Positions 7,702 through 35,238 of a stretch of 52,744 nucleotides of DNA are shown piece after piece (positions within the stretch are counted from its first letter, which is position 1; the number at the start of each line of letters is the position of its first letter). Source of the DNA: an uncultured Gammaproteobacteria bacterium. GTDB lineage: Bacteria > Patescibacteriota > Patescibacteriia > Patescibacteriales > UBA12465. Location: the NCBI GenBank assembly GCA_964394905.1, contig CAYMZF010000002.1, positions 1 to 52,744 of the forward strand, in the 5' to 3' direction. Below the pieces are notes generated by a model. That model was not told where the DNA came from. It was given only the letters and a program-made list of their open reading frames with translations, and did not search any database. The position numbers and the translations under genes were made by a program.

Positions 7702-7723
7702 ATTATTAATTTATTTAAAATTA

Positions 7724-9151: not shown

Positions 9152-11767
9152 TTAAAAACTTATTTTTTGTAATTCGGTTTGATAGGTTGTTAATTTGTCT
9201 TTTTCTTTTTGAACTAAATCACTTGGAGCTTTATCAATAAATTCACGGTTAGCTAATTTATTTTCTATAAGACTTATCATTTTTTTTAGATTTTCAACTT
9301 CTTTGGCCCGGCGAATTTTTTCCTTGGTTTCGTCTATAGCTCCTATTAAATAAATTTCAATTTCACCTATGTTTATGGCAATAACATTTTCTTTGGAAAA
9401 AACGGAATTTTCGGTGATAAACTCAATTTCAGAAATACCGGTTTTTAGATTAGTAATTAAATGTTGTTGGTTTTTTATAATTTTTTCTTTTGTTCTATCC
9501 AGTATTAAAGCTTTTATTTTCTGAGCCGGTTCAACTTTATTGGCAAAACGAGCGTTTCTGATGGTAATAATAATTTCTTTTATTAATTCAAAATCTTTTT
9601 CTTCTGAGTTATATGATAAATTTTGCGGTTGAGGCCAAGGAGCAATCATTAAAGTTTCGGGTTCTTGTAATTCTTGCCAAATAACTTCAGTTACAAAAGG
9701 GATGAATGGATGCCATAATTTTAAAACATTTTTTAATAAAAATATTAATAGTTTATTATTATTGTCATTTTTTTCAAACTTTTTAGCTTCTAAATACCAA
9801 TCAGCCAAATCATTCCAGGTAAAATCTTTTAATTTATCACCCGCTAAAGCGAATTGATATTCTTTCAAATTTTTTGTTGATTCAATTATTAAATTATTAA
9901 AACGATTTAATATCCATTGGTCGCTTAAAGTTAAGTTATTAGGATCGTAATTATCGGAAAAATCTTTAACGTTTGATGTTATAAATCGGCTGATATTCCA
10001 AAGTTTATTTACAAAATTGCGACAGCTTACAAGTTTTTCGTCGCTATTACGCATGTCATTTCCGGGAGTATTACCGATTAACAATGATAATCTTAAAGCA
10101 TCGGTACCGAATTCTTTTATTACATCCAACGGATCAATTCCATTACCTTTAGATTTACTCATTTTTTTACCGTTTTTATCTAAAACGGTTCCATGTAAAT
10201 AAACTTTTTCAAAAGGAATTTCTCCTAAAGCAAAAAGTGACATTATAACCATGCGAGACACCCATAAAGTAATAATTTCATAACCGGTTTCTAACATTTG
10301 AGTGGGGTGATATTTTTTTAATTCCCTCGATTTAATACCATTTTTAAAATTATCGGGCCAACCTAAAGTTGAAAAGGTCCACATACCGGAAGAGAACCAA
10401 GTATCTAAAGTATCAGGATCTTGAGTCCAACCCTCATCTTGCGGTTGTTCATAACCGACATATATTTTGTCTTCTTTATACCAAACCGGAATTTGATGAC
10501 CAAACCAAATTTGACGACTAATACACCAGTCATGCAAATTAGAAGTCCAATCTAAATATCTTTTAGCGAATCTTTCGGGAATAAATTCAATTTGTTTGGT
10601 TTCGGCCACTTCTAATGCTTTTTCTTTTAATGATTTATTATCTAAACGTTCCAATTTTTTGTCAACATTAACAAACCACTGTTTGGACGGTAAAGGTTCA
10701 ATCGGTGTATCACAGCGATAACAAATTGATAAATTATTGTTAATTTCTTCTTCTTTTTCTATTAAGCCTTGTTTTTGTAATTCAGTTATTATCATAGCAC
10801 GAGCTTCTAAAGCAGTTTGACCGGAAAATTTACCAAAACCTTCTCTTATCAGTCCTTGTTCATTTATAACTTTAATACTGGGTAAATTATTTTTTTGAGC
10901 CATTTGAGAATCAACTATAGAATGAGCCGGAGTTACACCTAAAGCTCCGGTACCAAAGTTCATATCAACACTAATATCGGAGATTATTTTTATATTTAAT
11001 TTTTGTCCGCAAAATTCAGTGGCAATAGTTTGTCCGATATATTTTTTGTAGCGTTCGTCGCGCGGATTAACGGCAATGGCCGTATCACCTAATTTTGTTT
11101 CGGGACGAGTAGTGGAGATAGCAATTGGAAAATTAAGATTATATTTAAAAGTATAAAATTTAGCTTGTTGTTCTTTATATTCAATTTCATCATCGGCTAA
11201 AGTTGATTGACAACGCGGGCACCAATTTATTACTCGTTCACCACGATAGATAATTTCATCATTATACATATCAATAAACATTTTTTTAACCGCTTCTTGT
11301 CTGGGTTCATCTAAAGTAAAAGCTTGGCGACTCCAATCAAGGGAGGTACCCATTTTTTTTGTTTGATTTAAAATAGTGCTTTGAGTTTCATTTAAAAATT
11401 CCCAAACTTTGGTTAAAAACTTTTCTCGTCCTAAATCATGTCGAGTTTGATGTGTTTCCGCAAATATCTTTTTTTCCACTACGTTTTGTGTGGCAATGGC
11501 GGCATGATCAGTTCCGGGAATCCAAAGAGTTCGATATCCGGTCATGCGATGAAATCTGACAAATAAATCTTCAATAGCTAACATTGAAGCATGTCCGATA
11601 TGAAGTTTGGCGGTGATATTGGGTGGGGGTAAAACTATAGTATAATTTGGCGCGGTTTCAGGCAAATTTAAATTATCAGGGTTAAAATAACCTGATTTTT
11701 GCCATTTTTCATAAATTTTATCTTCCCATTCTTCTGGGTTATAGATTTTTTCCATTTCTTTTTTCAT
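9152..11767 (-). CDS. valS: valine--tRNA ligase
   Basis: PPPNITAKLHIGHA (HIGH), KMSKSKGN (KMSKS), an editing-domain insert, and a C-terminal coiled coil. Confidence 0.95.
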   Translation of the reverse strand: MKKEMEKIYNPEEWEDKIYEKWQKSGYFNPDNLNLPETAPNYTIVLPPPNITAKLHIGHASMLAIEDLFVRFHRMTGYRTLWIPGTDHAAIATQNVVEKKIFAETHQTRHDLGREKFLTKVWEFLNETQSTILNQTKKMGTSLDWSRQAFTLDEPRQEAVKKMFIDMYNDEIIYRGERVINWCPRCQSTLADDEIEYKEQQAKFYTFKYNLNFPIAISTTRPETKLGDTAIAVNPRDERYKKYIGQTIATEFCGQKLNIKIISDISVDMNFGTGALGVTPAHSIVDSQMAQKNNLPSIKVINEQGLIREGFGKFSGQTALEARAMIITELQKQGLIEKEEEINNNLSICYRCDTPIEPLPSKQWFVNVDKKLERLDNKSLKEKALEVAETKQIEFIPERFAKRYLDWTSNLHDWCISRQIWFGHQIPVWYKEDKIYVGYEQPQDEGWTQDPDTLDTWFSSGMWTFSTLGWPDNFKNGIKSRELKKYHPTQMLETGYEIITLWVSRMVIMSLFALGEIPFEKVYLHGTVLDKNGKKMSKSKGNGIDPLDVIKEFGTDALRLSLLIGNTPGNDMRNSDEKLVSCRNFVNKLWNISRFITSNVKDFSDNYDPNNLTLSDQWILNRFNNLIIESTKNLKEYQFALAGDKLKDFTWNDLADWYLEAKKFEKNDNNNKLLIFLLKNVLKLWHPFIPFVTEVIWQELQEPETLMIAPWPQPQNLSYNSEEKDFELIKEIIITIRNARFANKVEPAQKIKALILDRTKEKIIKNQQHLITNLKTGISEIEFITENSVFSKENVIAINIGEIEIYLIGAIDETKEKIRRAKEVENLKKMISLIENKLANREFIDKAPSDLVQKEKDKLTTYQTELQKISF

Positions 11768-11850
11768 GATTTTTTATTGTTTTTCCTTTTAAATTATAGC
11801 ATTATATTATCAAAAATAACACTCTTGGTCAATTATTTAATCTGTCAATA

Positions 11851-11879
11851 TTGACTATTTTTTTAAATCAATATATAGT
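11851..11879 (+). promoter_or_regulatory. candidate sigma70-type promoter for the DHH-family gene
   Basis: TTGACT-N17-TATAGT, with the -10 ending 32 nt upstream of the ATG at 11911. The -35 overlaps the palindrome GTCAATATTGAC. Confidence 0.45.
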
Positions 11880-11910
11880 ATTTAATTAACATTTTTTAAT
11901 TGTAAGTCAG

Positions 11911-13167
11911 ATGGAAACCGGTCAACAATTTTTTAATTTAATTGAAAAATCAAAAAATATTTTAATAAGTTTTCCGATTGATTGGAGCGGAGATGCTATT
12001 TCAGCCTCTTTGGCTTTGTTTTTATTTCTTAAAAAAATAGGAAAAAACGTTGAAATTGGAGCCGAGCACATGAAAAATGCCAATAATTTTAAAATACCGA
12101 CTGAATCTTTTAAATTTTTACCGGCATTTTCGGAAATAAAAGATTCTTTGGAAAACTTAATGAAATTTATTGTTTCGGTTGATTTAAAAAATGCTAAAGT
12201 CAGTCAAATAAAATATGTTATTGAAAATAATAAACTTAATTTTATAATTTCACCTAAAGACGGTTTTTTTACCGAAGAAGATCTTAGCTCTAATATGGGT
12301 GGTTTTAAATATGATTTAATTATTACGGTTGATAGTTGTGATTTAGAATCTTTGGGCAAAATTTATGACAGTAATATTGATTTTTTTTATAAAACCCCGA
12401 TTATTAATATTGATCAAAGTCCGGAGAATGAAGAGTTCGGACAACTTAATATTATTGACTTAAAAGCGGTAGCCGTTACTGAAATAGTTTTTAATTTATT
12501 ATCCAGTTATAATAAAAAATTGATTGATGAAGATATCGCCACTTGTTTATTGGCCGGAATAATTTTTAGAACTAAAAGTTTTAAAACTTCCAATGTTACT
12601 CCTCGGGTTTTAGATACTACTTCCAAATTAATTGAATTGGGAGCTCGACGGGAAGAAATTGTAGCTAATCTATATCGTTCTCGCAGTTTAAGTACTTTAA
12701 AATTATGGGGACGAGTTTTAAATAATTTATCAACCAGTGAAGACAATAGTATTATTTGGACAACTTTATTTAAAAATGATTTTCAAATATCTAAATCTGG
12801 TGAAGAAAACTTACAAGATGTTATTGATGAATTAATTATCAGTATTCCAACAGCTAAAGTTATTGTTGTTTTTTATTCTTTAAGTGAAATGTCGGTTTTA
12901 GATGAACAGTATATGACCAGTGACGACAAACGGGAATTTAATGATAAAACCATTGTTATTCATAATAGTCTTGATGGTCTTGATAAAATTTTTAGAACCA
13001 ATGTTACTGTTTGTTCGGTAAAAAATATTGACGCTTTGGAATTGATAAAAAATTTAAAGCCGGAAGGCACTAAAAAAATAGCTCAATCTTCAATTAATCG
13101 TCCACTTAAAGAAGTGGAAAAAGAAGTAATCTCAAATATAAAAAATCAGCTTGAAAAAATATTTTAA
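11911..13167 (+). CDS. DHH/DHHA1-family phosphoesterase homolog (NrnA-like) with degenerate catalytic motifs
   Basis: The overall NrnA-like layout is present: ILISFPIDWSGDAISASLAL, LIITVDSCD, IINIDQSPENEEFG, LLAGIIFRTKSF. However, the DHH motif reads DQS and the GxxTDTGxF motif reads IFRTKSF. Confidence 0.65.
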   Translation: METGQQFFNLIEKSKNILISFPIDWSGDAISASLALFLFLKKIGKNVEIGAEHMKNANNFKIPTESFKFLPAFSEIKDSLENLMKFIVSVDLKNAKVSQIKYVIENNKLNFIISPKDGFFTEEDLSSNMGGFKYDLIITVDSCDLESLGKIYDSNIDFFYKTPIINIDQSPENEEFGQLNIIDLKAVAVTEIVFNLLSSYNKKLIDEDIATCLLAGIIFRTKSFKTSNVTPRVLDTTSKLIELGARREEIVANLYRSRSLSTLKLWGRVLNNLSTSEDNSIIWTTLFKNDFQISKSGEENLQDVIDELIISIPTAKVIVVFYSLSEMSVLDEQYMTSDDKREFNDKTIVIHNSLDGLDKIFRTNVTVCSVKNIDALELIKNLKPEGTKKIAQSSINRPLKEVEKEVISNIKNQLEKIF

Positions 13168-13230
13168 TAATGTTAATATTTTAAATAGTTAAACGGAATT
13201 ACCAGATAAAATGGCTGGTTTTTGTTTTCC

Positions 13231-13304
13231 GGGTGTATAGCTCAGTTGGTTAGAGCGCTACGTTGACATCGTAGAGGTCTCCCGTTCGAGTCGGGATATA
13301 CCCA
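13231..13304 (+). tRNA. tRNA-Val (anticodon GAC)
   Basis: Cloverleaf read by eye. Acceptor GGGTGTA/TATACCC, D-loop AGCTCAGTTGGTTAGAGC, anticodon arm CTACG-ttGACat-CGTAG, T-arm CCCGT-TCGAGTC-GGGAT (last pair T-T). No encoded CCA. Confidence 0.9.
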
Positions 13305-13320
13305 CTGGAGCTAAAATTTT

Positions 13321-13394
13321 GGGCATATAGCTCAGTTGGTTAGAGCACCGCCCTTATAAGGCGGGGGTCGATGGTTCAAGTCCATCTATGCCCA
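13321..13394 (+). tRNA. tRNA-Ile (anticodon UAU)
   Basis: Acceptor GGGCATA/TATGCCC, anticodon arm CCGCC-ctTATaa-GGCGG, T-arm GATGG-TTCAAGT-CCATC. The anticodon TAT reads AUA. Confidence 0.85.
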
Positions 13395-13398
13395 CAAT

Positions 13399-13827
13399 AT
13401 GGTAAATTTATTTAAAAAAAATAAAACCAATTCTTATAAAATTTCAACTTTTAACGAAGCTGAAGAAGCTTCTTTTAATTGGTTGGGTGAAGAATTAGCT
13501 GAGGGTCAATTGTTGGTGGATGTTTATCAAACTCCCGACAATATTATAGTTAAATCAACCATTGCCGGAGTTAAGCCGGAAAATTTATTCATTTCTCTTA
13601 ACCATGATATTTTAACTATCAAAGGTAAAAGAGAACATGAAAATTCGGTTAACGATGATGATTATTTACTTCGAGAATGTTATTTTGGTTCTTTTTCTCG
13701 AACTGTAATTTTACCGGAGGAAGTTGATAATAAAAAGATTGAAGCCGTTTTAGAAAACGGAGTATTAACTGTAGTTTTAGAAAAAATGTATAAAGACCAT
13801 CAAGTTAAAGTAAAAATCAAGTCATAA
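13399..13827 (+). CDS. Hsp20/alpha-crystallin family small heat shock protein
   Basis: Alpha-crystallin domain: LLVDVYQTPDNIIVKSTIAGVKPENL...ILTIKGKRE...GSFSRTVILPEEVDNKKIEAVLENGVLTVVLEK. Confidence 0.88.
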   Translation: MVNLFKKNKTNSYKISTFNEAEEASFNWLGEELAEGQLLVDVYQTPDNIIVKSTIAGVKPENLFISLNHDILTIKGKREHENSVNDDDYLLRECYFGSFSRTVILPEEVDNKKIEAVLENGVLTVVLEKMYKDHQVKVKIKS

Positions 13828-13831
13828 TTTT

Positions 13832-14056
13832 ATGGAAAAGGTTTTTGTTATTATTAAATTTTCCGAGGAAAATGTTGTTTTGTATAACGATGAATTAAAT
13901 CGAGAGTTTTTATGGTTGCGAGAATTTTTACCGCCTGATTCTAAAGTCGGCGATAAAATAAATTTTTTAATTTCGCTTGACGATATTGAAACGGCTAAAA
14001 GAAAACAACAAGCTCGGGATGTTTTGAATGAAATTTTAACAGTTGAAGAAAATTAA
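13832..14056 (+). CDS. small hypothetical protein (DUF3006-like, tentative)
   Basis: 74 aa, tightly coupled to hsp20 (4-nt gap). The pattern VFVIIKFSEENVVL...LPPDSKVGDKI resembles DUF3006 from memory. Confidence 0.5.
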   Translation: MEKVFVIIKFSEENVVLYNDELNREFLWLREFLPPDSKVGDKINFLISLDDIETAKRKQQARDVLNEILTVEEN

Positions 14057-14081
14057 TTTTTTATTTTAAAAGTCAGGTTTT

Positions 14082-16025
14082 ATGAATATTAAAACCAAAA
14101 AAATTATTTTTATAAGCATAGGCATTGTATTATTATGGCTTGTTTTTTTATTGGTCGGTAATTTTGTTTATAATAAAAAATGGGCTAATACTATTTATCC
14201 TAATATTTATTTAAATAATGTTAATTTAGGCGGTTTGAATAAAGCTGAAGCTAAAGATGTTATTAATCAAAAAATAAACGATTTTGAAAAAACAGGAATA
14301 AGGATAAACTTGAAAAATAGGGAAATTATTTGGAATAATACCGTCTCATCTTTAGATCCGGATTTAGCCATTCAACCGGTAGTTTTTGATGTTGATAAAA
14401 CAATAGATCGGGCTTATCAATTTGGTCGTCAAGGAAATTTATCGGATATATTTTTTAAAATTAATTCTTTGTTTTTTAAAACTCAAGTAGAAATAAATTT
14501 TTCAATTAATGATGAAAATATATTAAAAATTTTAAATGATAATTTTTCTGATTTAGAAATATTTACTAATAATGCCAAACTAAATTTTAAAGAAGAAATA
14601 AAAAACACCGATAATACTACCACTTTAACTTTCTTTATTGAACCGGAAAATTCCGGTAAAGAAATTGATGATAATGTTTTTTTAACAAAATTTAAAAACA
14701 ATTTATCTTTACTGAAAAATGATCAAATTAATTTGAATTTAGTTGATAAACAACCGGAAATAACTTTAGCTATGTCTCAGGGTTTAGAAATAGAAGCGGA
14801 GAATTTATTAAACTTAGCTCCGTTTAATTTAATTTATCAAGATAAAAACAAAACTTTTGTTGTTAGCCAAATAGAATTGGCTTCGTGGTTAAATTTGGAA
14901 CCACAGTATTTACAGAACAAAATTATTTCAACTCAGGTCGGTTTAGATGATGAAAAAATTATTAAATTTTTTGATGAAAAAATAAAACCCGAAGTTAATC
15001 AAGAACCGGTTTTACCAAAATTTGAATTTAGTAATAATAAAGTTAGCTCTTTTGAATCCGGTACGGACGGTTTAAAAATAAATTATGAACAAAGTATAAA
15101 TAATATAAAAAACGCTTTTTATCAACGTAATATGGAAAATGTTGTTTTAACGGTAGAAGTTGATCCGGTTCAAAAAATTAACAGCGTTAACGATTTAGGA
15201 ATTGAAGAAATAATCGGTACGGGTCATTCTAATTTTTCCGGTTCATCGGCTAATCGTCGTCATAATATAAAAACCGGGGCTAGCAAACTTAGCGGTTTAA
15301 TTATTAAACCCGGTGAAGAATTTTCTCTTCTTAAAGCATTGGGAGAAACAGATGCTAAAGCCGGTTATTTACCGGAGTTAGTTATTAAAGGGAATAAAAC
15401 AACTTTGGAATACGGTGGAGGTTTATGTCAAATTGCTACTACGATGTTTAGAACCGCTTTAGCTTCCGGTTTACCAATTACCGAACGGCGTAATCATTCT
15501 TATCGGGTTTCATATTATGAACCGGCTGGAACGGATGCCACTATTTATATTCCCAGTCCTGATTTAAAATTTAAAAATGATACGGGTAATAATATTTTAA
15601 TTCAAACTCGTTTTGAAGGCACTAATGATATTTATTTTGATTTTTGGGGGAAATCAGATGGTCGAACAGCTACAACCACTTATCCGGTTATTTATAATAT
15701 TGTTAAACCGGCTCCGACCAAGATTGTTGAAACTACTGAATTGCCGGTGGGAGAGAAAAAATGTACCGAAAGCGCTCATGCCGGAGCTGAAGCCTATTTT
15801 GATTATACGGTCATATATAATGCTGGAACAGATAATGAAAATAAAGTTGAAACTAGATTTAGTTCTAAATATGTTCCATGGCAAGCCGTATGTCTCTTAG
15901 GAGTTGAAAAAACAAGTGAAGCGACCTCCACTTCTATGACTGCTTCTACTTCTACTCTCAATACTACTTCAATTAATACAGTTTCAACCAGCACTAGTCT
16001 AATTGCCACTACTACAACTGAATAG
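14082..16025 (+). CDS. VanW-family protein, TM-anchored, with Ser/Thr-rich C-terminal tail
   Basis: N-terminal TM helix. VanW core: RRHNIKTGASKLSGLIIKPGEEFSLLKALGE, YGGGLCQIATTMFRTALASGLPITERRNHSYRVSYYEP. The C-terminal ~45 aa are almost only S/T. Confidence 0.85.
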   Translation: MNIKTKKIIFISIGIVLLWLVFLLVGNFVYNKKWANTIYPNIYLNNVNLGGLNKAEAKDVINQKINDFEKTGIRINLKNREIIWNNTVSSLDPDLAIQPVVFDVDKTIDRAYQFGRQGNLSDIFFKINSLFFKTQVEINFSINDENILKILNDNFSDLEIFTNNAKLNFKEEIKNTDNTTTLTFFIEPENSGKEIDDNVFLTKFKNNLSLLKNDQINLNLVDKQPEITLAMSQGLEIEAENLLNLAPFNLIYQDKNKTFVVSQIELASWLNLEPQYLQNKIISTQVGLDDEKIIKFFDEKIKPEVNQEPVLPKFEFSNNKVSSFESGTDGLKINYEQSINNIKNAFYQRNMENVVLTVEVDPVQKINSVNDLGIEEIIGTGHSNFSGSSANRRHNIKTGASKLSGLIIKPGEEFSLLKALGETDAKAGYLPELVIKGNKTTLEYGGGLCQIATTMFRTALASGLPITERRNHSYRVSYYEPAGTDATIYIPSPDLKFKNDTGNNILIQTRFEGTNDIYFDFWGKSDGRTATTTYPVIYNIVKPAPTKIVETTELPVGEKKCTESAHAGAEAYFDYTVIYNAGTDNENKVETRFSSKYVPWQAVCLLGVEKTSEATSTSMTASTSTLNTTSINTVSTSTSLIATTTTE

Positions 16026-16048
16026 ATATTTTTCTAAAATAAAAAAAA

Positions 16049-16159
16049 CCGACTTAAACGGGATAGGCAAGAAAATTTCTTTTAGGAGTTTTAAAGCAAA
16101 TGCCTTAGAGACCCTGAAAGAAAATCCCATGCTTGTCGTGCCTGACCCGTTTAAACCGG
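16049..16159 (+). ncRNA. candidate rod-like structured RNA (or unusually elaborate terminator) between convergent vanW and tsaD
   Basis: A 111-nt imperfect hairpin. 16049-16062 pairs with 16146-16159 (12 of 14), 16064-16072 with 16136-16144 (8 of 9), and 16076-16086 with 16113-16123 (11 of 11 including one G-U). There is an apical stem with loop AAAT at 16098-16101. The hairpin is flanked by A8 and T6. Three G-U pairs favour the + strand. Confidence 0.4.
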
Positions 16160-16245
16160 TTTTTTAATTGTTAAAACATAACTGTTAAATATATCATACA
16201 AATAAAAATATGTCAATAGTAAACTTAACTATTTTTTATATTCTT

Positions 16246-16273
16246 AAAAAACCCTTATTTTAAAGGGTTTTTT
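16246..16273. terminator. terminator of tsaD (palindromic, usable in both directions)
   Basis: AAAAAACCCTT-atttta-AAGGGTTTTTT, overlapping the tsaD stop codon. Confidence 0.7.
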
Positions 16274-17315
16274 ACTTAAATTCGAGGTTGGAATTAACTT
16301 TTATATCTTTATAGGTTTTAAACTTTTTTTTATTTTTTAAAAAATGATAGGTTCCGGCCATAGCAATCATAGCGGCATTATCACCGGTATATTTAAGTGA
16401 CGGAAAAATAAAATTAATATTTTTAAAATTTTTTTTAATTCGTTTTTGAAATTCATTTTTTAATTCCTGATTAGCTGAAACTCCGCCCACCAACATAATG
16501 GTTTTAACTTGATATTTTTTAGCCGCCTTTAAAGTTTTACTTATTAAGACATCAATCGCGGCTTGTTGGAAAGAATAACAATATTGAGGAATTTTATTTT
16601 TCCAATTTTTATCTTTTTTTAATTGATAAAGTAAAGCAGTTTTTAAACCGGAAAAAGAAAAATTAAAGTTAGGTGAAGTTATCATCGGACGAGGTAAATG
16701 AATTTCTTCCGGATTTTTAACATTGTTTATATATTCTTTAGCTTGTTTTGCTATTATTGGTCCGCCGGGATAGCCAAGACCCATCATTCGAGCGGCCTTG
16801 TCAAAAGCTTCACCGGCGGCATCATCTAAAGTTTGTCCAATAATTTGATAATGTAGATGATCCTTCATTAAAGCTAAAATATTATGACCACCTGAGACGG
16901 TTAAAATTAAAACCGGCCAAATTATTTTCTTTTTATTTTCTATAAAAGCAGAATAGATATGGCCCTCAATATGATTAATGGGAATTATCGGTTTGTTCCA
17001 AACATAGGCTAAACTCTTGGCTGTTTCCGTAGCTGAAATTAAAGAAGTTATAAGTCCCGGGCCGGCGGTAACGGCAATAGCTGAAATTTGGCTTGGTTTT
17101 ATTTTAGCTTGTTTAATACTTTGATCAATTACCGGCAAAATATGAACAACGTGTTCACGGGCGGCAATTTCCGGCACGACTCCACCATATTGTTTGTGGA
17201 TATTAATTTGAGAGGAAACAATATTGGATAAAATATTAAAATTGTTATAATCGAATTTTATAATAGCGGCGGCGCTTTCGTCGCAACTGCTTTCAATTCC
17301 TAAAATTATTGGCAT
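16272..17315 (-). CDS. tsaD: tRNA N6-adenosine threonylcarbamoyltransferase TsaD (Kae1/Gcp family)
   Basis: ILGIESSCDESAAAI, GGVVPEIAAREH, HIEGH, SGGH, GDNAAMIA motifs. Confidence 0.93.
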   Translation of the reverse strand: MPIILGIESSCDESAAAIIKFDYNNFNILSNIVSSQINIHKQYGGVVPEIAAREHVVHILPVIDQSIKQAKIKPSQISAIAVTAGPGLITSLISATETAKSLAYVWNKPIIPINHIEGHIYSAFIENKKKIIWPVLILTVSGGHNILALMKDHLHYQIIGQTLDDAAGEAFDKAARMMGLGYPGGPIIAKQAKEYINNVKNPEEIHLPRPMITSPNFNFSFSGLKTALLYQLKKDKNWKNKIPQYCYSFQQAAIDVLISKTLKAAKKYQVKTIMLVGGVSANQELKNEFQKRIKKNFKNINFIFPSLKYTGDNAAMIAMAGTYHFLKNKKKFKTYKDIKVNSNLEFK

Positions 17316-17369
17316 ATTTTTTTGTTTATAACTATAGTTTAACTGAAGTTTTAATTAAAAACAAGATTA

Positions 17370-17398
17370 TTGACAAGATTAAGAATTAAATATAAAAT
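17370..17398 (+). promoter_or_regulatory. candidate sigma70-type promoter upstream of tRNA-Glu
   Basis: TTGACA-N17-TAAAAT, with the -10 ending 55 nt upstream of the tRNA 5' end. Confidence 0.5.
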
Positions 17399-17400
17399 AA

Positions 17401-17430
17401 AAATGCTTTTAGTTAATGCTAAAAGCATTT
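17401..17430. other. perfect 12-bp hairpin between the promoter and tRNA-Glu
   Basis: AAATGCTTTTAG-ttaatg-CTAAAAGCATTT, followed by TAGTTTTTT. It looks like a terminator, but it sits between a promoter and the tRNA. Confidence 0.5.
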
Positions 17431-17452
17431 TAGTTTTTTATGTGACTTTATT

Positions 17453-17524
17453 GGCCCCTTCGTCTATCGGTTAGGACACCAGGTTTTCAACCTGATAAGA
17501 TGGGTTCGACTCCCGTAGGGGTCA
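17453..17524 (+). tRNA. tRNA-Glu (anticodon UUC); integration target of the island
   Basis: Acceptor GGCCCCT/AGGGGTC, anticodon arm CCAGG-ttTTCaa-CCTGA, T-arm TGGGT-TCGACTC-CCGTA (end pairs T-A, T-C mismatch). No encoded CCA. The 3' 44 nt belong to the 80-nt direct repeat. Confidence 0.88.
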
Positions 17525-17560
17525 CATTATAAAATAGGTTTTAAAACCTATTTTTTTGTT
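17481..17560. repeat. left copy of exact 80-nt direct repeat (attL-like)
   Basis: Identical to 22589-22668 by direct comparison. Covers tRNA-Glu from the anticodon stem to the 3' end, plus 36 nt downstream including the tRNA terminator hairpin. Confidence 0.95.
17531..17557 (+). terminator. tRNA-Glu terminator (duplicated in the right repeat at about 22639-22665)
   Basis: AATAGGT-tttaaa-ACCTATT followed by T7. Confidence 0.6.
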
Positions 17561-17695
17561 ATACTTTTTTAAATATTAGATTTAATAGTTATAAGATTTT
17601 TATTTTTATTTTTTATATTTTACTAGCATGCTTATAAAATGTAATAAAATTTGATTTTTGATAAAATTAGTGTTATTTTAATAGTGATAATTAAA

Positions 17696-17821
17696 TTTGC
17701 CTAAACTTCTCTTGGGAGCATGGCAAAAAGTCCACGAAAGCAAAAATGGTCTTCTGACCGGTTTTTAGCTTTCGTGGCGCATATCTAAAAGATGTGTTAA
17801 TCGTGTCGGGGGACCTTTTTT
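17696..17821 (+). ncRNA. candidate structured RNA / structured 5' leader at the left edge of the island
   Basis: A locally GC-enriched ~125 nt in otherwise very AT-rich DNA.
- Stem TTTGCC (17696-17701) with GGCAAA (17722-17727).
- A long nested hairpin: CCACGAAAGC (17732-17741) with GCTTTCGTGG (17768-17777), extended by A5/T5 and GGTC-ttct-GACC.
- Hairpin CATATCT-aaa-AGATGTG (17780-17796).
- A short GTC-gggg-GAC stem followed by T6 (17816-17821). Confidence 0.4.
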
Positions 17822-17840
17822 GGTTTCTTACATTAATAAT

Positions 17841-17951
17841 ATGGATAATTTGGTAACAACTATTATCGAGTGGGTGTACATAATACTCTTATTTTTAGTT
17901 TTTGGACAAGTCTATAAAACATACGACGAGTATAAAAAAATAAAATTATAA
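17841..17951 (+). CDS. candidate 36-aa hydrophobic peptide (type I toxin-like)
   Basis: My own translation gives MDNLVTTIIEWVYIILLFLVFGQVYKTYDEYKKIKL: one TM helix plus a charged tail. It starts 20 nt after the T-run of the structured element. It is too short for the ORF track. Confidence 0.3.
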   Translation: MDNLVTTIIEWVYIILLFLVFGQVYKTYDEYKKIKL

Positions 17952-18037
17952 AAATATCAACTACTGGATTTATAGCCATCTCAATTCTGTTTTTATTATT
18001 ATCGTATTCTTTTATTTACAAACCATATTTTACAAAA

Positions 18038-18232
18038 ATGGGACAAATAATAAGAGAAACAAAAAGAGAACAAAAACTCGAGAAAAAAACTCTATATTAT
18101 GCTTGCGGTTTGCCAAAGGATAATAAACTTTATTTAAAATTATTAAAAGAGTGTAAAGAACTAGAAGTAAGAGCAGAATATGAGTCAGATTATCAAGATT
18201 GTGCTCCTAATTATATGGGTGGTTGTGATTAA
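18038..18232 (+). CDS. hypothetical 64-aa protein (four Cys, Lys/Glu rich)
   Basis: ORF only, with no recognisable motif. Located in the island. Confidence 0.35.
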   Translation: MGQIIRETKREQKLEKKTLYYACGLPKDNKLYLKLLKECKELEVRAEYESDYQDCAPNYMGGCD

Positions 18233-18292
18233 TTTTTTTCTTTTATTTATTTTTCTCAATAGTACTTAATTTTTTTAATCTTCGTTAATTTT

Positions 18293-18314
18293 TGGACACA
18301 ATATGGACACAATT
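18293..18314. repeat. tandem 11-nt direct repeat TGGACACAATA/TGGACACAATT
   Basis: Two adjacent copies, with a related AGGACAGAAAT 11 nt downstream. They sit in the 425-nt non-coding stretch upstream of the zinc-ribbon cassette. Confidence 0.6.
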
Positions 18315-18657
18315 TTTTATGTTCAGGACAGAAATAATATTTTATGAGAGATTTATTATATTTAACTTTTAAGTTGAGGGGGGAAGTTAATAAAAGATTT
18401 TATTTAATACTTTTTAAAAATATGTTATTATTAAAGTAATACTATTTGGTTAGTTCATGTAATAACCAGTTATACTCAATTTAAAAATACTTTTCTAATA
18501 GAGAATAAGGAACGATAGGCTTTTAAATAGAAATAAATTTGTTTTTTATTTATTTAAAGGTTAGCATAAAGTATTTTCTCTGTTCTGCTACAAAAAAGAT
18601 TTATTTATAAGAAGAAAATAAATATAGTACAATTATAAAATATTAATCATTAAACCT

Positions 18658-19188
18658 ATGTTTTGTGTAAATTGCGGAAGTAAAATAGAAGATGGTTCAA
18701 AATTTTGCCACAATTGCGGAATTAACATTAATATTGATTTATCTACTCCTAAAAATGTAAAGAAAACTGAACAAGTTATTAAAACCAATGTAAAAACAGA
18801 TAATACAAGAGAGTCAGCGGAAGAATATCAAGCAAAAACAAATATTAAGAGCAAAGAAGAAGCAAAAAAATATCTAAACCAATTGAGGGTACTATTTTGG
18901 ATTGTATTTTTGAGTATTGTTGTAATACGTGTTTTAGGTGAATTAGAAAGCGAGCTAGTTGCCATTTTGTCTATACCTTACATAGGGCTATTGATTTATT
19001 TTATTGTTTTTTCAGTCAAAGTTCTAAAAGCTGAAAAATTATCAAGTGTTAATGCGTTATGGTGTATATTTTTTGCTCCGATTAGCTGGTTGTATATTTA
19101 TCCGTTAATGGCTGATCCACTCAAGATAATTCTGGAAGAAAAACAGCCACCAATTCGTTTAAACGAGACAGAAAAAAACAAAAGATAG
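18658..19188 (+). CDS. zinc-ribbon membrane protein (N-terminal CxxC-N11-CxxC, Lys/Glu linker, about 3 TM segments)
   Basis: MFCVNCGSKIEDGSKFCHNCG, then hydrophobic segments VLFWIVFLSIVVIRVL, LVAILSIPYIGLLIYFIVFSV and ALWCIFFAPISWLYIYPL. Confidence 0.8.
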   Translation: MFCVNCGSKIEDGSKFCHNCGININIDLSTPKNVKKTEQVIKTNVKTDNTRESAEEYQAKTNIKSKEEAKKYLNQLRVLFWIVFLSIVVIRVLGELESELVAILSIPYIGLLIYFIVFSVKVLKAEKLSSVNALWCIFFAPISWLYIYPLMADPLKIILEEKQPPIRLNETEKNKR

Positions 19189-19295
19189 TTGAAGTTAATA
19201 AAAAATTTTAGAGAAATTTCTGGATATTTACCGGTGTTGTAGTTGGTATTTTTGCTGTTAGTTTAATTGTAATATTTTTATTAAATTAAAAAAAT

Positions 19296-20198
19296 ATGTT
19301 TTGTAAAAATTGTGGGAAAGAATTAAATGAAAATCAAAGATTTTGTATCAGTTGTGGTGTTAAATTTTCAGGTATAAATAAAGAAGAAAAAGAAGCACCA
19401 AAAGTACAATTTAAACCTGTTTCACAAAATAAAAAATTGTGGAGTGCTAGGAAAATTATTACAATTCTTGTAATACTCGCAATAATAGGAATTGGCATTT
19501 ATAATAGCCTAGATGAAGATGTAATTATTAAAAATAATGAGGGATTATCAAATTTTGATTCGGGAAATAGTCAGGTTGCAATAAATCAATTTCAACAAGC
19601 AAGCCAAGATGCAGTATCTAATGAAAATAAAATAAACTCTCTAAAAAATCTTGCTTTTGTATACACTACAGAAGGACAGAATGAACAAGCACTTAGTACT
19701 TTTAAAGAGGCATTAAATTTAACAAAAGTTAATTCTTTTGATTATTATTTAATTTCTGGTGAAATTGCTTTATTAGAATATAAACCAAATTCAGCAATTT
19801 TAAGTTATAATAAGGCATATGAGCTTGATTCAAATAATTTTCAAATAAATAATTCTCTTGCTTTATTTTATCTAGACCTTGAAGAAATTGCACCTCAGTA
19901 TACAGATTATTCTAAAGCATTGACCTATGCAAAAAAAGCATATGAATATGATTCTGAAAAATCTGAAATTTCTAAACAAAATTTAGCAATAGCATATTAT
20001 TTTAATGATAATTTTGATCAAACAATTTCTTTATTATCTACAACAAACCTTACCCAACACCCATATGCCGCTTTTTGGTTAGGACTTTCTTATTTAGAAA
20101 AAGAAGATGAAATAAATGCTCGAATTAATTTTCAAAAAGCTATAGAGGGTGGTGCAGAAATGCCACAAGAAATAATTAATTATTTAAATTCTAACTAA
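19296..20198 (+). CDS. zinc-ribbon / single-TM / TPR-repeat protein
   Basis: MFCKNCGKELNENQRFCISCG, then a TM helix at about aa 54-69 (IITILVILAIIGIGIY). After that come repeated TPR-like helices (ALSTFKEALNL, AILSYNKAYELDSNN, ALTYAKKAYEYDSE, ARINFQKAIEGG). Confidence 0.8.
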   Translation: MFCKNCGKELNENQRFCISCGVKFSGINKEEKEAPKVQFKPVSQNKKLWSARKIITILVILAIIGIGIYNSLDEDVIIKNNEGLSNFDSGNSQVAINQFQQASQDAVSNENKINSLKNLAFVYTTEGQNEQALSTFKEALNLTKVNSFDYYLISGEIALLEYKPNSAILSYNKAYELDSNNFQINNSLALFYLDLEEIAPQYTDYSKALTYAKKAYEYDSEKSEISKQNLAIAYYFNDNFDQTISLLSTTNLTQHPYAAFWLGLSYLEKEDEINARINFQKAIEGGAEMPQEIINYLNSN

Positions 20199-20204
20199 AA
20201 TAAT

Positions 20205-20579
20205 ATGTTTTGCGAAAAATGTGGAAACAAATTAAAAGAAAATCATAAATTTTGTACTGAATGCGGACATTTAAATTTAGATAAACAAGAATTTAAAAAA
20301 ACTTCCTCAAATATTTTGGAACAAAAATGGTGGTTTCGTTTAGCTAAAGTTTTATATATATTTTTATACATACCTTTGCCATTTGTTATAATTGAGGTTT
20401 GGTCAGATAACACTCCATCTCATTATTATTATGATGATTCATATAGTGAGGCATTTTGGTACTCATTACTTACTTTAGTTGTTTGGGTTGTTATCTTAAG
20501 ATTAATAAAAATTACTTTTCTTTACATAGCTTTTGGAAAAAAACCACAATGGAAAAAAGAATTTAAAAAAATTTTATAA
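20205..20579 (+). CDS. zinc-ribbon membrane protein (two TM segments)
   Basis: MFCEKCGNKLKENHKFCTECG, then WWFRLAKVLYIFLYIPLPFVIIEVW and AFWYSLLTLVVWVVILRLIKITFLYIAFG. There is a 6-nt gap to the upstream gene. Confidence 0.8.
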   Translation: MFCEKCGNKLKENHKFCTECGHLNLDKQEFKKTSSNILEQKWWFRLAKVLYIFLYIPLPFVIIEVWSDNTPSHYYYDDSYSEAFWYSLLTLVVWVVILRLIKITFLYIAFGKKPQWKKEFKKIL

Positions 20580-20581
20580 AT

Positions 20582-21040
20582 ATGATTATTTTCGGCTGGG
20601 GATACCAGACAATAAAAAACATTGGCCCAACATTTAAAAATCGTTGTAGTCACTGCAATAATGAAGATTATTGGATACTTACAAAATATATTACTTGGTT
20701 TACTTTGTTTTTTATTCCAGTCATTCCTTATTCGATTAAATATTTTTTAAGTTGCCCAATTTGCCAGTATGGCATAATTCTTGATAGTAACCAATTGGAG
20801 CAAATTAAACCAATTGCAGAAGCAAATCAATTGTTAATTGATGGAAAAATAACAGAAATAGAATATAAAGCTAAAGTTGAACAACTAGATAGCGAGGTAC
20901 CATCGGTTGAGGGTGAAGTTATTAAAGAGAAGTTTTTAAATAATACAGGAGAAACTAATAAATTTTGTTCTGAGTGTGGTACAAAAATAACCGAAGGCAC
21001 AAAATTTTGTGGTAATTGCGGCGCAAAAATTTTTAACTAA
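20582..21040 (+). CDS. membrane-embedded split zinc ribbon + SHOCT-like helix + C-terminal zinc ribbon protein
   Basis: C22xxC25 and C58xxC61 flank a hydrophobic hairpin (YITWFTLFFIPVIPY). LLIDGKITEIEYKAKVEQL resembles a SHOCT motif. The C-terminus is FCSECGTKITEGTKFCGNCG. There is a 2-nt gap to the upstream gene. Confidence 0.8.
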   Translation: MIIFGWGYQTIKNIGPTFKNRCSHCNNEDYWILTKYITWFTLFFIPVIPYSIKYFLSCPICQYGIILDSNQLEQIKPIAEANQLLIDGKITEIEYKAKVEQLDSEVPSVEGEVIKEKFLNNTGETNKFCSECGTKITEGTKFCGNCGAKIFN

Positions 21041-21045
21041 AAAGT

Positions 21046-21912
21046 ATGTTTTGTATAAAATGTGGAAACGAGATAAAAGAAAGCTCAAAATACTGTACAA
21101 AGTGTGGTAGTGAATTTTTAAATGACAAAAAAATCAAATCTAAATCAAAATTTTTTGCAAAAAGAAAATTGCTTTATATTTTCGGGGGTTTATTTATTGT
21201 TGCAATAAGTTTATATTTTTTAAATTCATTTTTTAGTACATCAAATAGTAATAATTATGATGTAGCATCTTCCGTTGTGAATATTTATTGTGAAGGTAAG
21301 GATGATGAAGAGATTATTAGTGGATCAGGAACAATATTTTCTGAAGACGGCTTGGTATTAACCAATGCTCATATAATTCCAGAAAGTGCAAAAGATGATA
21401 TTTATATTGATGACACACTATGTTTTGTTGTTTTGCCAGACCCAGTCACTGGTGCACCCGACGAAATTTATTATGCCTATCCAATATTAGATGAAAATCT
21501 AAGTGATGAGTATGATTTAGCTTTTTTACAAATTCATGATGTTTTTTATGATGAAGAAGAAGGATTGTATTATGGCGAATTTCCTAAAAAATTTCCTGCT
21601 TATGTAGATAAAAAACAATGTAGTAGTGATAGTGTAAAACTTGGTGAACCAGTAAAAATATACGGATACCCCGCAATTAGTGGCGGATATGCTCTTACAA
21701 TCACGGACGGTGTTGTTAGTAGTTTATTAGTTGATGAGGGTTTAATAATAACCTCTGCAAAAATTAGTTATGGTAATTCTGGGGGGTTAGCAGTTGATCA
21801 AAATGGATGTATGATTGGAATACCTTCAATGGTAACTGGAGATGAAAACGAAAGTTTGGGCGTAATCATTTCAAACGATTTAATAAATGAATTTATTGAT
21901 AAAATCAAATAG
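21046..21912 (+). CDS. zinc-ribbon / single-TM / trypsin-like (S1, Trypsin_2-type) serine protease
   Basis: MFCIKCGNEIKESSKYCTKCG, a TM helix at about aa 41-58, and an intact catalytic triad context: LTNAH109I, EYD157LAFLQI, YGNS245GGLAV. Confidence 0.85.
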   Translation: MFCIKCGNEIKESSKYCTKCGSEFLNDKKIKSKSKFFAKRKLLYIFGGLFIVAISLYFLNSFFSTSNSNNYDVASSVVNIYCEGKDDEEIISGSGTIFSEDGLVLTNAHIIPESAKDDIYIDDTLCFVVLPDPVTGAPDEIYYAYPILDENLSDEYDLAFLQIHDVFYDEEEGLYYGEFPKKFPAYVDKKQCSSDSVKLGEPVKIYGYPAISGGYALTITDGVVSSLLVDEGLIITSAKISYGNSGGLAVDQNGCMIGIPSMVTGDENESLGVIISNDLINEFIDKIK

Positions 21913-21954
21913 ATTTTTTGGTTGGGGCAATTTACCTATAATAGCGTGTATGCG

Positions 21955-21986
21955 ATTTGGGTTTTTATGAAAAAAATCACCCAAAT
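21955..21986 (+). terminator. hairpin downstream of the protease gene (possible terminator)
   Basis: ATTTGGGT-N16-ACCCAAAT with inner T5/A5 pairing. It is followed by a T-rich stretch rather than a clean T-run. Confidence 0.35.
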
Positions 21987-22021
21987 TATTTGTTTCCTTA
22001 ATTATTAACTATTAAAAATAT

Positions 22022-22237
22022 ATGGAAAAACAAAAAAATTCTAGTACTATTAAAAAAACAATTTTCTTTGTTATATGTGCATTTTTAGTTATTGGTACTT
22101 TAGCTGGTAAAAATCTTAAATATATTACTGATTGGAGTACATCGGAATTAGTAGGTTTTAATATTTGGTCACTAATCGCCATTTTTGGCGGTGCTTATTT
22201 GATATATTTAGGTGTGAAAATAATTAATCGTTTGTAA
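22022..22237 (+). CDS. small two-TM membrane protein
   Basis: 71 aa with two hydrophobic helices (TIFFVICAFLVIGTLAG and IWSLIAIFGGAYLIYLGV). It is the last ORF of the island. Confidence 0.6.
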   Translation: MEKQKNSSTIKKTIFFVICAFLVIGTLAGKNLKYITDWSTSELVGFNIWSLIAIFGGAYLIYLGVKIINRL

Positions 22238-22588
22238 CTTCATATACATACGAACGTTTATTAAAATATTCCTTTTATTTTTTGGGCTATTACTCAATTG
22301 TCTTAAATTTTTAATTTTTTATTAATTAAAAAAGGGTAATAAGGAGTTTTTTACTACGTTTTAAAAATGATTTAATTATAGTGAGTTGTTAAGAATGTTA
22401 GATAATGAAGAAGAATAAAAATATAAAAAATAATTATTAAAAATGTCTCAAAAATTTTTAGAATTTCATATAAAAGCAAATGATTGTTTTGGTATTTTAG
22501 CCACTATATTAAGTTTAATTAGCCAAAATATAGAAAAAAATAAAAGTAGGAGTTTAAATTTAAAAGTATTAAAAAGTATTCCTCTAAT

Positions 22589-22668
22589 AGGTTTTCAACC
22601 TGATAAGATGGGTTCGACTCCCGTAGGGGTCACATTATAAAATAGGTTTTAAAACCTATTTTTTTGTT
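22589..22668. repeat. right copy of exact 80-nt direct repeat (attR-like; orphan 3' part of tRNA-Glu)
   Basis: Identical to 17481-17560. No tRNA 5' half precedes it. Confidence 0.95.
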
Positions 22669-22714
22669 TATAAAAATGATATAATTATGGCAGATTATAA
22701 TTAATAAATGAGTT

Positions 22715-23509
22715 ATGAAAAAAACAATGTTAATAAAAATAATTACCGCCATTTCTTATGTATCTATGGTTGTAATAAATATGTTAGCCAATATCTTACC
22801 CTTTAATGACAGAACTACCGGAGAGATATCAAATCTGTATCCCAATCTTTTTGCTCCGACCGCTTTAACTTTTTCTATTTGGGGACTTATTTATTTAGTA
22901 TTGGGTATTTATGTTTTATATCAATTTGGTCTTTTTCAAAAAAATAAGGGTCGAGATAAAAATAAATTATTTTTAAATATTGATCTTTACTTTATAATAA
23001 CTTGTTTGGCTAATATGTTATGGATGTTTTGTTGGCATTATGATTTTATCGGACTTTCGGTTATTTGTATAATTATTTTATTATTAGCTTTAATTAAAAT
23101 TGCTCAAATTTTAAAAAAAGAAAAATTTTCTTTTAAAGAAGAATTATTCATGGCCATGCCTTTTTATGGTTATTTCGGTTGGATTACTGTAGCAACTATC
23201 GCCAATATTTCCGTTTTTCTGGTAAGTATAAACTGGAATGGCTTCGGTTTAGCGGAAAATTATTGGACGGTTATAATGTTAATAATTGGAGCTATTATTG
23301 GAAGTATAGTAATGATTAGAGAAAAAACTTTATCATATGGAATAGTTATGATTTGGGCTTATTTAGGTATTTGGCTTAAACATATTTCTCATGCTGAATT
23401 TAATAGTAGATATCCCGAGATAATAATTACCGCAATTGTTTGTCTAGCTCCATTTTTAATAATTGAAGGATACTTGTTGTGTAAAAAATATGATAAACGT
23501 TTAAGATAG
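22715..23509 (+). CDS. multi-pass membrane protein, TspO/MBR-related (tentative)
   Basis: 264 aa with about 7 hydrophobic segments, rich in Trp and aromatic residues. The motif NDRTTGEISNLYPNLFAPTALTFSIWGLIYL resembles the long TspO-like family from memory. Confidence 0.55.
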   Translation: MKKTMLIKIITAISYVSMVVINMLANILPFNDRTTGEISNLYPNLFAPTALTFSIWGLIYLVLGIYVLYQFGLFQKNKGRDKNKLFLNIDLYFIITCLANMLWMFCWHYDFIGLSVICIIILLLALIKIAQILKKEKFSFKEELFMAMPFYGYFGWITVATIANISVFLVSINWNGFGLAENYWTVIMLIIGAIIGSIVMIREKTLSYGIVMIWAYLGIWLKHISHAEFNSRYPEIIITAIVCLAPFLIIEGYLLCKKYDKRLR

Positions 23510-35061: not shown

Positions 35062-35081
35062 AAAGCTATTATTTGACTTAT

Positions 35082-35116
35082 AAAATAGGATATATTTATT
35101 TATATATCCTATTTTT
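35082..35116 (+). terminator. hppA terminator
   Basis: AAAATAGGATATA-tttattta-TATATCCTATTTT plus a T. Confidence 0.7.
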
Positions 35117-35130
35117 AGTAAATTATTCTA

Positions 35131-35161
35131 ACTAAAATACAAATGTAATTTGTATTTTAGT
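35131..35161. other. perfect 14-bp palindrome/hairpin upstream of the AAA+ ATPase gene
   Basis: ACTAAAATACAAAT-gta-ATTTGTATTTTAGT. It lies 16 nt upstream of the -35 of the next promoter. Confidence 0.6.
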
Positions 35162-35177
35162 TTGACTTTTATTAATA

Positions 35178-35206
35178 TTGACTTATTTTTTAGTTTAGGG
35201 TATAAT
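35178..35206 (+). promoter_or_regulatory. candidate sigma70-type promoter of the AAA+ ATPase gene
   Basis: TTGACT-N17-TATAAT, with the -10 ending 33 nt upstream of the ATG at 35239. Confidence 0.55.
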
Positions 35207-35238
35207 CAAATTATATTTTAGAATTAAAATATAATTAT

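Follow-up and report, generated by a model that had tools for sequence, protein, structure and literature searches.

An integrase-less island at a tRNA-Glu gene of a Patescibacteria-type genome and its kinship with LOOT-bearing integrative elements

The window analysed here, which is the whole stretch of 52.7 kb of genomic DNA under study, carries at a tRNA-Glu(UUC) gene an island of 5,028 bp (17561-22588) bounded by two identical 80-nt repeats and coding for no detectable recombinase. Single, joined sites in related lineages identify this island as an insertion, and its left end is homologous to a part of Patescibacterial elements which encode an integrase (Int), an excisionase-like protein (Xis) and a primase-helicase-type replication protein (Rep). 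We favour, with a probability of about 60%, the explanation that the island derives from a family of Patescibacterial integrative elements targeting tRNA genes and is non-autonomous, Int, Xis and Rep being absent from it. It is a defective tRNA island resembling the cis-mobilizable elements (CIMEs), a known kind of element found here in a new host group, the Patescibacteria, and it shows a state of decay or hitchhiking in an ultra-small, host-dependent type of genome in which mobile elements are poorly charted.

The tRNA-Glu site and its empty counterparts

A repeat search over the window returned a sole two-copy family of 80-nt direct repeats, with 100% identity over 80 of 80 positions (Table 1). 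Calculated from the composition of about 29% GC, exact repeated 80-mers are expected about 1e-33 times in 52.7 kb, so that the repeat is not due to chance. Its first nucleotide is the third one in the 5' arm of the anticodon stem, three base pairs ahead of the loop (AGG-TTTTCAA-CCT), and it comprises the 3' 44-45 nt of the tRNA followed by 35-36 nt of downstream sequence with the hairpin AAAATAGGTTTTAAAACCTATTTT and a T-run. The tRNA at the left copy was also matched by the Rfam tRNA model (17453-17524, 53 bits), with an equal score in the relatives whose site is empty. At the right copy there is no tRNA 5' half: ARAGORN detected no tRNA there and the upstream bases differ. A 3' segment of the tRNA is repeated on both sides of the insert and only the left end has an intact tRNA, which is the arrangement by which tRNA islands are recognised. 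The first-pass annotation had described an exact 80-nt duplication, with the tRNA-Glu 3' part and its terminator on the left and an orphan copy on the right, and the repeat search, ARAGORN and Rfam bear this description out.

No Pfam match to Phage_integrase, Resolvase, Recombinase, DDE or Y1 was obtained with any island open reading frame (ORF), the longest minus-strand ORFs within the island being of at most 57 aa. Recombinases, decayed ones included, were also searched for at E<=1 in X-masked frame translations, and none was detected in the three minus-strand frames of 17526-22700 or, on the plus strand, in any of the three frames of the two ends poor in ORFs (17526-18703 and 21900-22702). 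A decayed integrase in the ORF-free 1.1 kb beside the tRNA (17561-18650) was considered and rejected, the six frames yielding no Pfam match at E<=1. Similarly, neither an integrase nor a transposase was found in a scan of 30 of the remaining window ORFs with a length of 120 aa or more. All are of housekeeping type; they include DprA, topoisomerase I, several aminoacyl-tRNA synthetases, NusA, H+-PPase, trigger factor, IF-3, RNase J, FtsH, NusB and RNase III. The Pfam scans of ORFs, the frame translations and the 30 window ORFs all agree with the earlier statement that integrase, resolvase and transposase are absent. A transposon or insertion sequence was discarded as well: there is no transposase, and the sole end-to-end inverted repeat is an AT-rich match of 38 nt at 74%. 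Target-site duplications produced by transposition are far shorter than 80 nt. The window also contains a T4SS-pilin-domain protein, a lamin-tail-domain protein, the tmRNA and the start of the 23S rRNA. Because of this gene content and of the sources of the closest protein homologues, it looks like a piece of a Patescibacteria/Parcubacteria-type chromosome.

The 44-nt tRNA core was found by exact search once in L001 (DAONEH010000003.1, a contig from a GTDB genome) and in the metagenome contigs L021 and L022, and it had no match in viral contigs. L001 is collinear with window positions 9662-17560 at 87% identity and then continues directly with window positions 22589-22800. In L021, a 67-kb contig, the tRNA is joined straight to the right flank in the same manner, and so it is in L022, which is 91.8% identical to the window over 2.85 kb and whose only 80-nt copy agrees with both window copies at 100% identity. 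Pairwise identities were 91.8% for window-L022, 85.5% for window-L021, 84.6% for L021-L022 and 99.95% for L021-L001. The last value leads us to treat L021 and L001 as one population, and the topology given by these identities is ((window, L022), L021/L001). With this topology one gain in the window lineage is more parsimonious than two precise losses. Since two independent related lineages have the single joined site, we conclude that the segment is an insertion gained in the window lineage. With empty sites in both the sister lineage and the outgroup, it is a clean and recent gain.

The check for an empty tRNA-Glu site, proposed together with the first description of the island, was thus answered by single-copy joined sites in L022 (91.8%) and in L021/L001 (about 86%), and these sites uphold the reading that the segment was truly inserted and bears a footprint of site-specific integration in the anticodon-loop part of the tRNA. 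As the 80 nt have remained unchanged across 8% genomic divergence, the identity of the repeats dates the event only loosely. The other check, whether the core stands beside an integrase elsewhere, had a negative outcome in the exact 44-nt search of the viral, GTDB-genome and metagenome collections; likewise, no attP junction, no integrase-bearing element with the core and no second copy of the island was detected in these collections. Exact look-ups of the flanking proteins TsaD and YchF, by which the strain might have been located elsewhere, matched no record. Synteny of L022 with the window is also broken upstream of tRNA-Glu (L022 3311-4506 versus window 16272-17366), where a 276-aa secreted, paralogous-domain protein stands in place of TsaD, the tRNA-Glu neighbourhood being rearranged on both sides.

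The LOOT RNA and its elements

The left end of the island is related to L018, a contig carrying an Int/Xis/Rep element. Window positions 17582-17843 align by blastn to L018 10777-10518 with 74.5% identity over 267 nt (E=2e-37), and the aligned part holds in both a structured RNA of the LOOT family, whose L018 copy scores 46.3 bits, 0.1 below the Rfam gathering score. In L018 an operon for secreted or membrane proteins begins with the LOOT unit. In the other direction the unit is followed by a divergent 235-aa gene, a 583-aa Rep, an HTH_17 excisionase-like protein and a Phage_integrase truncated by the end of the contig. The homology extends only 4 nt into the start of the 235-aa gene, and the window's att core lies about 15 nt beyond this limit. 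From these two positions it follows that what is missing from the window is exactly the L018 module made of the 235-aa gene, Rep, Xis and Int (more than 4.5 kb). It had been proposed that the island is mobilised in trans or that a recombinase was deleted very recently. The deletion is supported by the homology of the LOOT and promoter region to the Int-Xis-Rep element L018; "very recently" holds only in a relative sense, the 80 nt being slow-evolving. Mobilisation in trans found no support in the viral, GTDB-genome and metagenome collections.

The 583-aa protein of L018 belongs to a large primase-helicase replication family whose members include relatives with Prim-Pol, PriCT_1 or Toprim domains. 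Homology to this Rep, and nothing else, was used to retrieve the elements L029-L033. The order in L029 is LOOT (54.7 bits), cargo, DUF5659, Rep, Terminase_2, HTH_17 and Int. L030/L031 contain cargo including a Zn-ribbon/DUF805 protein, a LOOT copy (80 bits) at the cargo head, Rep and a serine recombinase. In L031 the 3' end of the recombinase gene overlaps a tRNA-Asn gene, with the chromosomal sigma-70 and DnaG genes beyond, and in L032 the serine recombinase gene overlaps a tRNA-Gly gene. L032 and L033, which are more distant by Rep, both end at tRNA genes and have no LOOT. LOOT is therefore present in 3 of the 5 distinct Int/Rep elements examined, those whose Rep is closest to that of L018, and in these as in the island it always stands at the head of a cargo operon. 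The right end of the island points to the same elements: over residues 1-31 its last ORF shares 52% identity with a 71-aa gene of the LOOT/Rep/Int element L029 (tblastn, BLASTP; pairwise E=2e-11).

In the two elements with a recombinase gene abutting a tRNA, the genes are convergent and their 3' ends overlap, by about 40 nt for L031 (recombinase 10892-12514, tRNA-Asn 12475-12547 on the minus strand) and by about 12 nt for L032 (recombinase 12601-14223, tRNA-Gly(tcc) 14212-14286 on the minus strand). This suggests that their attP lies inside the 3' end of the recombinase gene. We also observed in L029, between Rep and HTH_17-Int, a small Terminase_2-type protein (7546-7968); the element is of about 9.5 kb and its order resembles that of satellites similar to the phage-inducible chromosomal islands (PICIs). 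No relatives of the L018 Rep were found in viral contigs. Those of the L029 integrase amounted to 80 viral loci and were set aside, all being at most 34% identical and none having the core or a LOOT-like motif. Direct repeats marking the ends of the L018 and L030 elements were looked for, and none was convincing.

The LOOT copy of the island was recognised by a sensitive search of 5.5 kb, in which it matched the full-length RF03000 model (1-121) with 40.1 bits and E=3.5e-5. It has the conserved boxes UGCCUAAAC...GCAUGGCAAAAA, the three-hairpin architecture and the terminal U-tract of the Rfam family, from which it differs by a score below the gathering score and by a shorter first hairpin. Over 106 nt it is 83% identical to the L029 copy, which passes the Rfam threshold. 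The minimum free energy (MFE) of the stretch is -51.1 kcal/mol, with z=-5.96 relative to shuffled sequences. In an alignment of five copies (window, L018, L029, L030 and L010) the structure is paired in 80.3% of the cells, compared with 32-50% in slid controls, and 14 pairs are changed on both sides; the observed score was reached by none of 500 shuffles. This covariation is that of five sequences only, on a structure taken from one of them. We counted pairs on the projected MFE structure because RNAalifold, run on the raw MAFFT alignment, mis-predicted the central helix.

RF03000 is an orphan motif entered in Rfam only as 'Gene; sRNA'. No account placing LOOT at the start of cargo operons in Patescibacterial Int/Rep elements was found in the searchable literature, as far as which shows the link between LOOT and this family would be undescribed. 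Through this link, which is the more useful by-product, an orphan motif acquires a host group and a genetic context as well as roles that can be tested. In viral contigs, a 20-mer of the LOOT subfamily had no match, and a generic LOOT pattern had nine matches of which one is a real LOOT (76.5 bits, L010 1843-1957). Its contig, of 10.4 kb and with a much higher GC content, comes from IMG/VR (IMGVR_UViG_2711768262_000001), and the RNA is upstream of a 907-aa secreted repeat protein. Examined by eye, the L010 ORFs, one for a protein of 304 aa and several for small membrane proteins, suggest an element similar to a filamentous phage.

Origin of the island

The favoured explanation, a derivative without Int, Xis and Rep, would involve the following events. 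A circular element, whose attP held the tRNA-Glu 3' part and terminator, would have recombined with the chromosomal tRNA-Glu gene, the crossover taking place within the 80-nt identity and most likely in the anticodon-loop region. Recombination would have rebuilt an intact tRNA at attL and moved the old 3' half to attR. In the full-length layout, as deduced from L018 with the tRNA position taken from L031/L032, the tRNA would be followed by Int, Xis, Rep and the first divergent gene with other genes interspersed, then by the promoter and LOOT RNA reading into the cargo operon, and finally by the second att. The derivative present in the window would have kept both att cores, the LOOT promoter/RNA/terminator unit and a fragment of a cargo-side gene, with the Zn-ribbon cassette downstream of LOOT. 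We infer that a tyrosine- or serine-type recombinase made the insertion, and the Int/Rep module was probably lost by deletion rather than never present, as it would be in a mosaic assembled de novo. As for present-day mobility, we infer that the island would not be self-mobile and would be excised or moved only by the integrase and excisionase of a related element.

Integrase-less islands flanked by att sites, the CIMEs, are well known in Firmicutes, including Streptococcus. The best reading of the island appears to be an equivalent of a CIME. It has intact and identical att repeats, both equal to the L022 attB, together with cargo genes; it is devoid of genes for integration and excision, transfer and replication; and its ends are related to autonomous integrase-bearing elements (L018, L029). 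It differs in that the parent family consists here of small elements (about 10 kb or more) with Int/Xis, a primase-helicase and LOOT rather than of a conjugative element, and in that no helper using the same site is known for a putative mobilisation by accretion. In tRNA islands and prophages with tyrosine integrases (P4-like elements, many pathogenicity islands) the crossover takes place in the anticodon-loop region. The island shares with them a tRNA 3' repeat starting at the anticodon stem, a tRNA regenerated at one end and empty sites in relatives. Unlike them, it has no integrase beside the tRNA, a structured-RNA promoter standing instead about 15 nt after the core, and its block of identity is long (80 nt) and extends through the terminator. 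With PICIs and other phage satellites the likeness concerns L029, which gathers Int, an HTH_17 excisionase-like protein, a primase-helicase-type Rep and a Terminase_2-type protein in about 10 kb, whereas genes for packaging, for capsid redirection or for a repressor were not identified, nor is a helper phage known. None of the defining genes is present in the window island, which would be a defective version.

Several observations weigh against a derivative of this family. Neither a cognate integrase nor an attP was found for the core, the exact 44-nt matches being empty sites only, and a trans-acting integrase was looked for in 52.7 kb of the genome only. No full-length relative was seen at tRNA-Glu or with the 80-nt core, the contigs of L018 and L029 stopping at the integrase or shortly beyond it. 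The LOOT score in the window is lower than the gathering score of 46.4, and this copy is absent from the gathering-threshold scan. Moreover, the cassette of L018 lies beyond the cargo operon on the strand opposite to LOOT, so that the window is not a simple deletion derivative and a capture of the cassette or a rearrangement must be assumed. Finally, the 36 non-tRNA bases of the repeat are the terminator of the host lineage, identical in L022, which fits an insertion driven by homology.

A bolder proposal, which we hold to be rather unlikely, is that LOOT is the signature of an undescribed family of small Patescibacterial integrative elements with Int/Xis and a primase-helicase, located at tRNA genes and possibly phage satellites. 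The island would then be a living minimal member (att-LOOT-cargo-att) depending on full-length relatives for excision, replication and transfer. If so, the conserved LOOT unit beside the att core would be the part that has to be kept, as a regulator or as a recognition RNA for the helper.

The homology-driven insertion is still less probable, and unlikely in our judgement. It would be a RecA-dependent, Campbell-type event in which a circle carrying 80 nt of the lineage's own tRNA-Glu 3' end and terminator recombined with the chromosome, the circle being possibly a piece of a neighbouring element excised aberrantly with adjacent chromosome. Besides the length of the identity and the host origin of its 36 non-tRNA bases (100% in L022), the absence of an integrase is accounted for, and imprecise excision could yield the mosaic, in which the ends derive from an element while the cassette is otherwise chromosomal. 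On its left side, however, the identity stops exactly at the anticodon stem-loop, which is the classic att position of recombinases, and the related elements have recombinases abutting tRNA 3' ends. Moreover, 80 nt are a poor RecA substrate compared with a dedicated integrase, and the source of the tRNA fragment of the circle would still have to be explained.

We judge about equally improbable that the island is an active non-autonomous satellite, a minimal hitchhiker made of LOOT and cargo which never needed a recombinase of its own and whose regular excision, replication and transfer would be due to a co-resident full-length LOOT-type element or a phage, with a possible participation of LOOT. 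No helper with the same core was detected in any collection, nor an attP form or a second copy of the island, and the 52.7-kb window contains no helper. The cargo cassette, furthermore, behaves as a vertically inherited gene set of the lineage. Four observations would suit a satellite: the perfectly intact att cores, the conservation of the LOOT promoter/RNA/terminator unit in spite of the loss of all that separated it from the att core, the occurrence of LOOT on a viral (IMG/VR) contig, and the Terminase_2-type protein beside Rep, Xis and Int in L029, reminiscent of phage satellites. The first of them is equally expected for a recent dead remnant because the repeat sequence is slow-evolving.

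An assembly artefact, in which empty-site chromosomes and a separate molecule sharing the 80 nt (an attP circle or the locus of another strain) were threaded together, is very unlikely. A de Bruijn graph with k below 80 would indeed resolve the integrated form and an empty site plus circle identically, many related contigs break at the cassette edges as in a region hard to assemble, and the collections hold no second contig with the island. Nevertheless, modern assemblers finish at k above 80 and require junction-spanning k-mers, the GC content of the island (0.23-0.30) and its positive GC skew match those of the flanks, and even then the island would be an integrase-less element with a tRNA-Glu att core. 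Least probable of all is an ancestral segment precisely lost in the relatives by recombination between the repeats, since, even though 80-nt direct repeats promote precise deletion and all empty sites are scar-free, it calls for at least two independent precise losses (L022, L001/L021) against one gain, leaves the duplicated tRNA half in need of an earlier integration and sits badly with repeats of zero divergence.

The Zn-ribbon cassette and other features

Table 1. Positions of the tRNA-Glu site, the island features and the LOOT copies.
Sequence	Feature	Positions	Strand	Evidence or remark
Window	Intact tRNA-Glu(UUC)	17453-17525	+	ARAGORN; 3' part from 17481 inside left repeat
Window	Left 80-nt repeat, attL core	17481-17560	+	tRNA 3' 44-45 nt, terminator hairpin and T-run
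Window	Promoter-like region	17575-17697	+	TTGATA-16 nt-AATAGT at 17658-17685; homologous to L018 intergenic region
Window	LOOT-family structured RNA, three hairpins, 3' hairpin and U-tract	17698-~17830	+	Rfam RF03000, folding, covariation
Window	LOOT copy	17698-17800	+	
L018	LOOT copy	10563-10661	-	
L029	LOOT copy	2033-2156	+	
L030	LOOT copy	4518-4644	-	
L031	LOOT copy	4536-4662	-	
Window	Small hydrophobic ORF, 43 aa, internal ATG 17841	17820-17951	+	No family match; position of first cargo-operon gene of L018
Window	64-aa ORF	18038-18232	+	No known family; no relatives in fetched loci
Window	Cassette gene 1, N-terminal Zn-ribbon membrane protein, 176 aa	18658-19188	+	Pfam Zn_Ribbon_1 3.9e-8
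Window	Cassette gene 2, Zn-ribbon and TPR, 300 aa	19296-20198	+	TPR_12, TPR_2, Zn_Ribbon_1; syntenic in all relatives
Window	Cassette gene 3, Zn-ribbon membrane protein, 124 aa	20205-20579	+	
Window	Cassette gene 4, Zn_ribbon_15, C-terminal Zn-ribbon, 152 aa	20582-21040	+	Pfam 8.8e-14
Window	Cassette gene 5, Zn-ribbon and trypsin-like serine protease, 288 aa	21046-21912	+	Pfam Trypsin_2 1.5e-16
Window	71-aa membrane ORF, unique to island	22022-22237	+	
Window	Right-end ORF, 65 aa	22443-22640	+	C-terminus reads into att core
Window	Right 80-nt repeat, attR core	22589-22668	+	Orphan tRNA 3' fragment and terminator

Between LOOT and the cassette lie two tiny ORFs and about 400 nt of non-coding DNA. 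The cassette itself (18658-21912) consists of five genes, each of whose proteins has an N- or C-terminal Zn-ribbon. Orthologues of gene 1 in L011-L028 are 62-83% identical, and the homologues of the protease in Patescibacteria form a smooth series whose identities decrease from 94% to 55%. Every contig retrieved has this block of genes, with DNA homology to the window confined to about 18566-21936 and an overall nucleotide identity of 81-87% (window and L011-L028). The earlier account of the island's content had missed both the LOOT-like RNA and these locations of the cassette in other genomes.

The cassette occurs in at least five different neighbourhoods, none of them with a tRNA. Upstream of it we found FecR and CHASE2 cyclase genes in L011/L012, HD-domain and unknown genes in L015 (with LemA, NifU and FtsW downstream), Ser_hydrolase and His_Phos_1 genes in L016/L017 and a radical-SAM gene in L018-L020. 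Downstream, an HTH_31 gene was found in L023/L025 and a Y1 transposase gene in L014. To judge by these comparisons, the cassette is a cargo gene set conserved in the lineage and not native to the tRNA-Glu site. Inside such an element it has a route by which it can be moved around the chromosome or between strains. The transposase gene of L014 is of the IS200 type (1146-1595) and stands 230 nt 3' of the protease gene of the cassette. Many metagenome contigs break exactly at the cassette edges, as if the region were strain-variable.

A function of the cassette in defence was considered using PADLOC and rejected, the only match being that of the protease domain to the protease part of RT-Protease_XI (1e-10); the other island proteins had no PADLOC match. 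The non-cassette DNA of the island had no match among annotated phages and plasmids. A decamer repeated in tandem (TGGACACAAT A TGGACACAAT, 18293-18313) occurs in the non-coding DNA that separates the 64-aa ORF from the cassette and could be a binding site for a regulator. Enrichment of TGGACACAAT was discarded, its two matches in the window being at the level of shuffled sequences; the tandem arrangement alone is notable.

Elsewhere in the window, a tRNA-Ile with a genomically encoded UAU anticodon (13321-13395) stands beside a tRNA-Val(GAC), and the pair is also present in L001. The lowest GC content of the window (0.198, at 35001-36000) coincides with a gene for an AAA_14/DUF4143 ATPase (35239-36447), and the segment 35001-36447 may be another foreign insertion.

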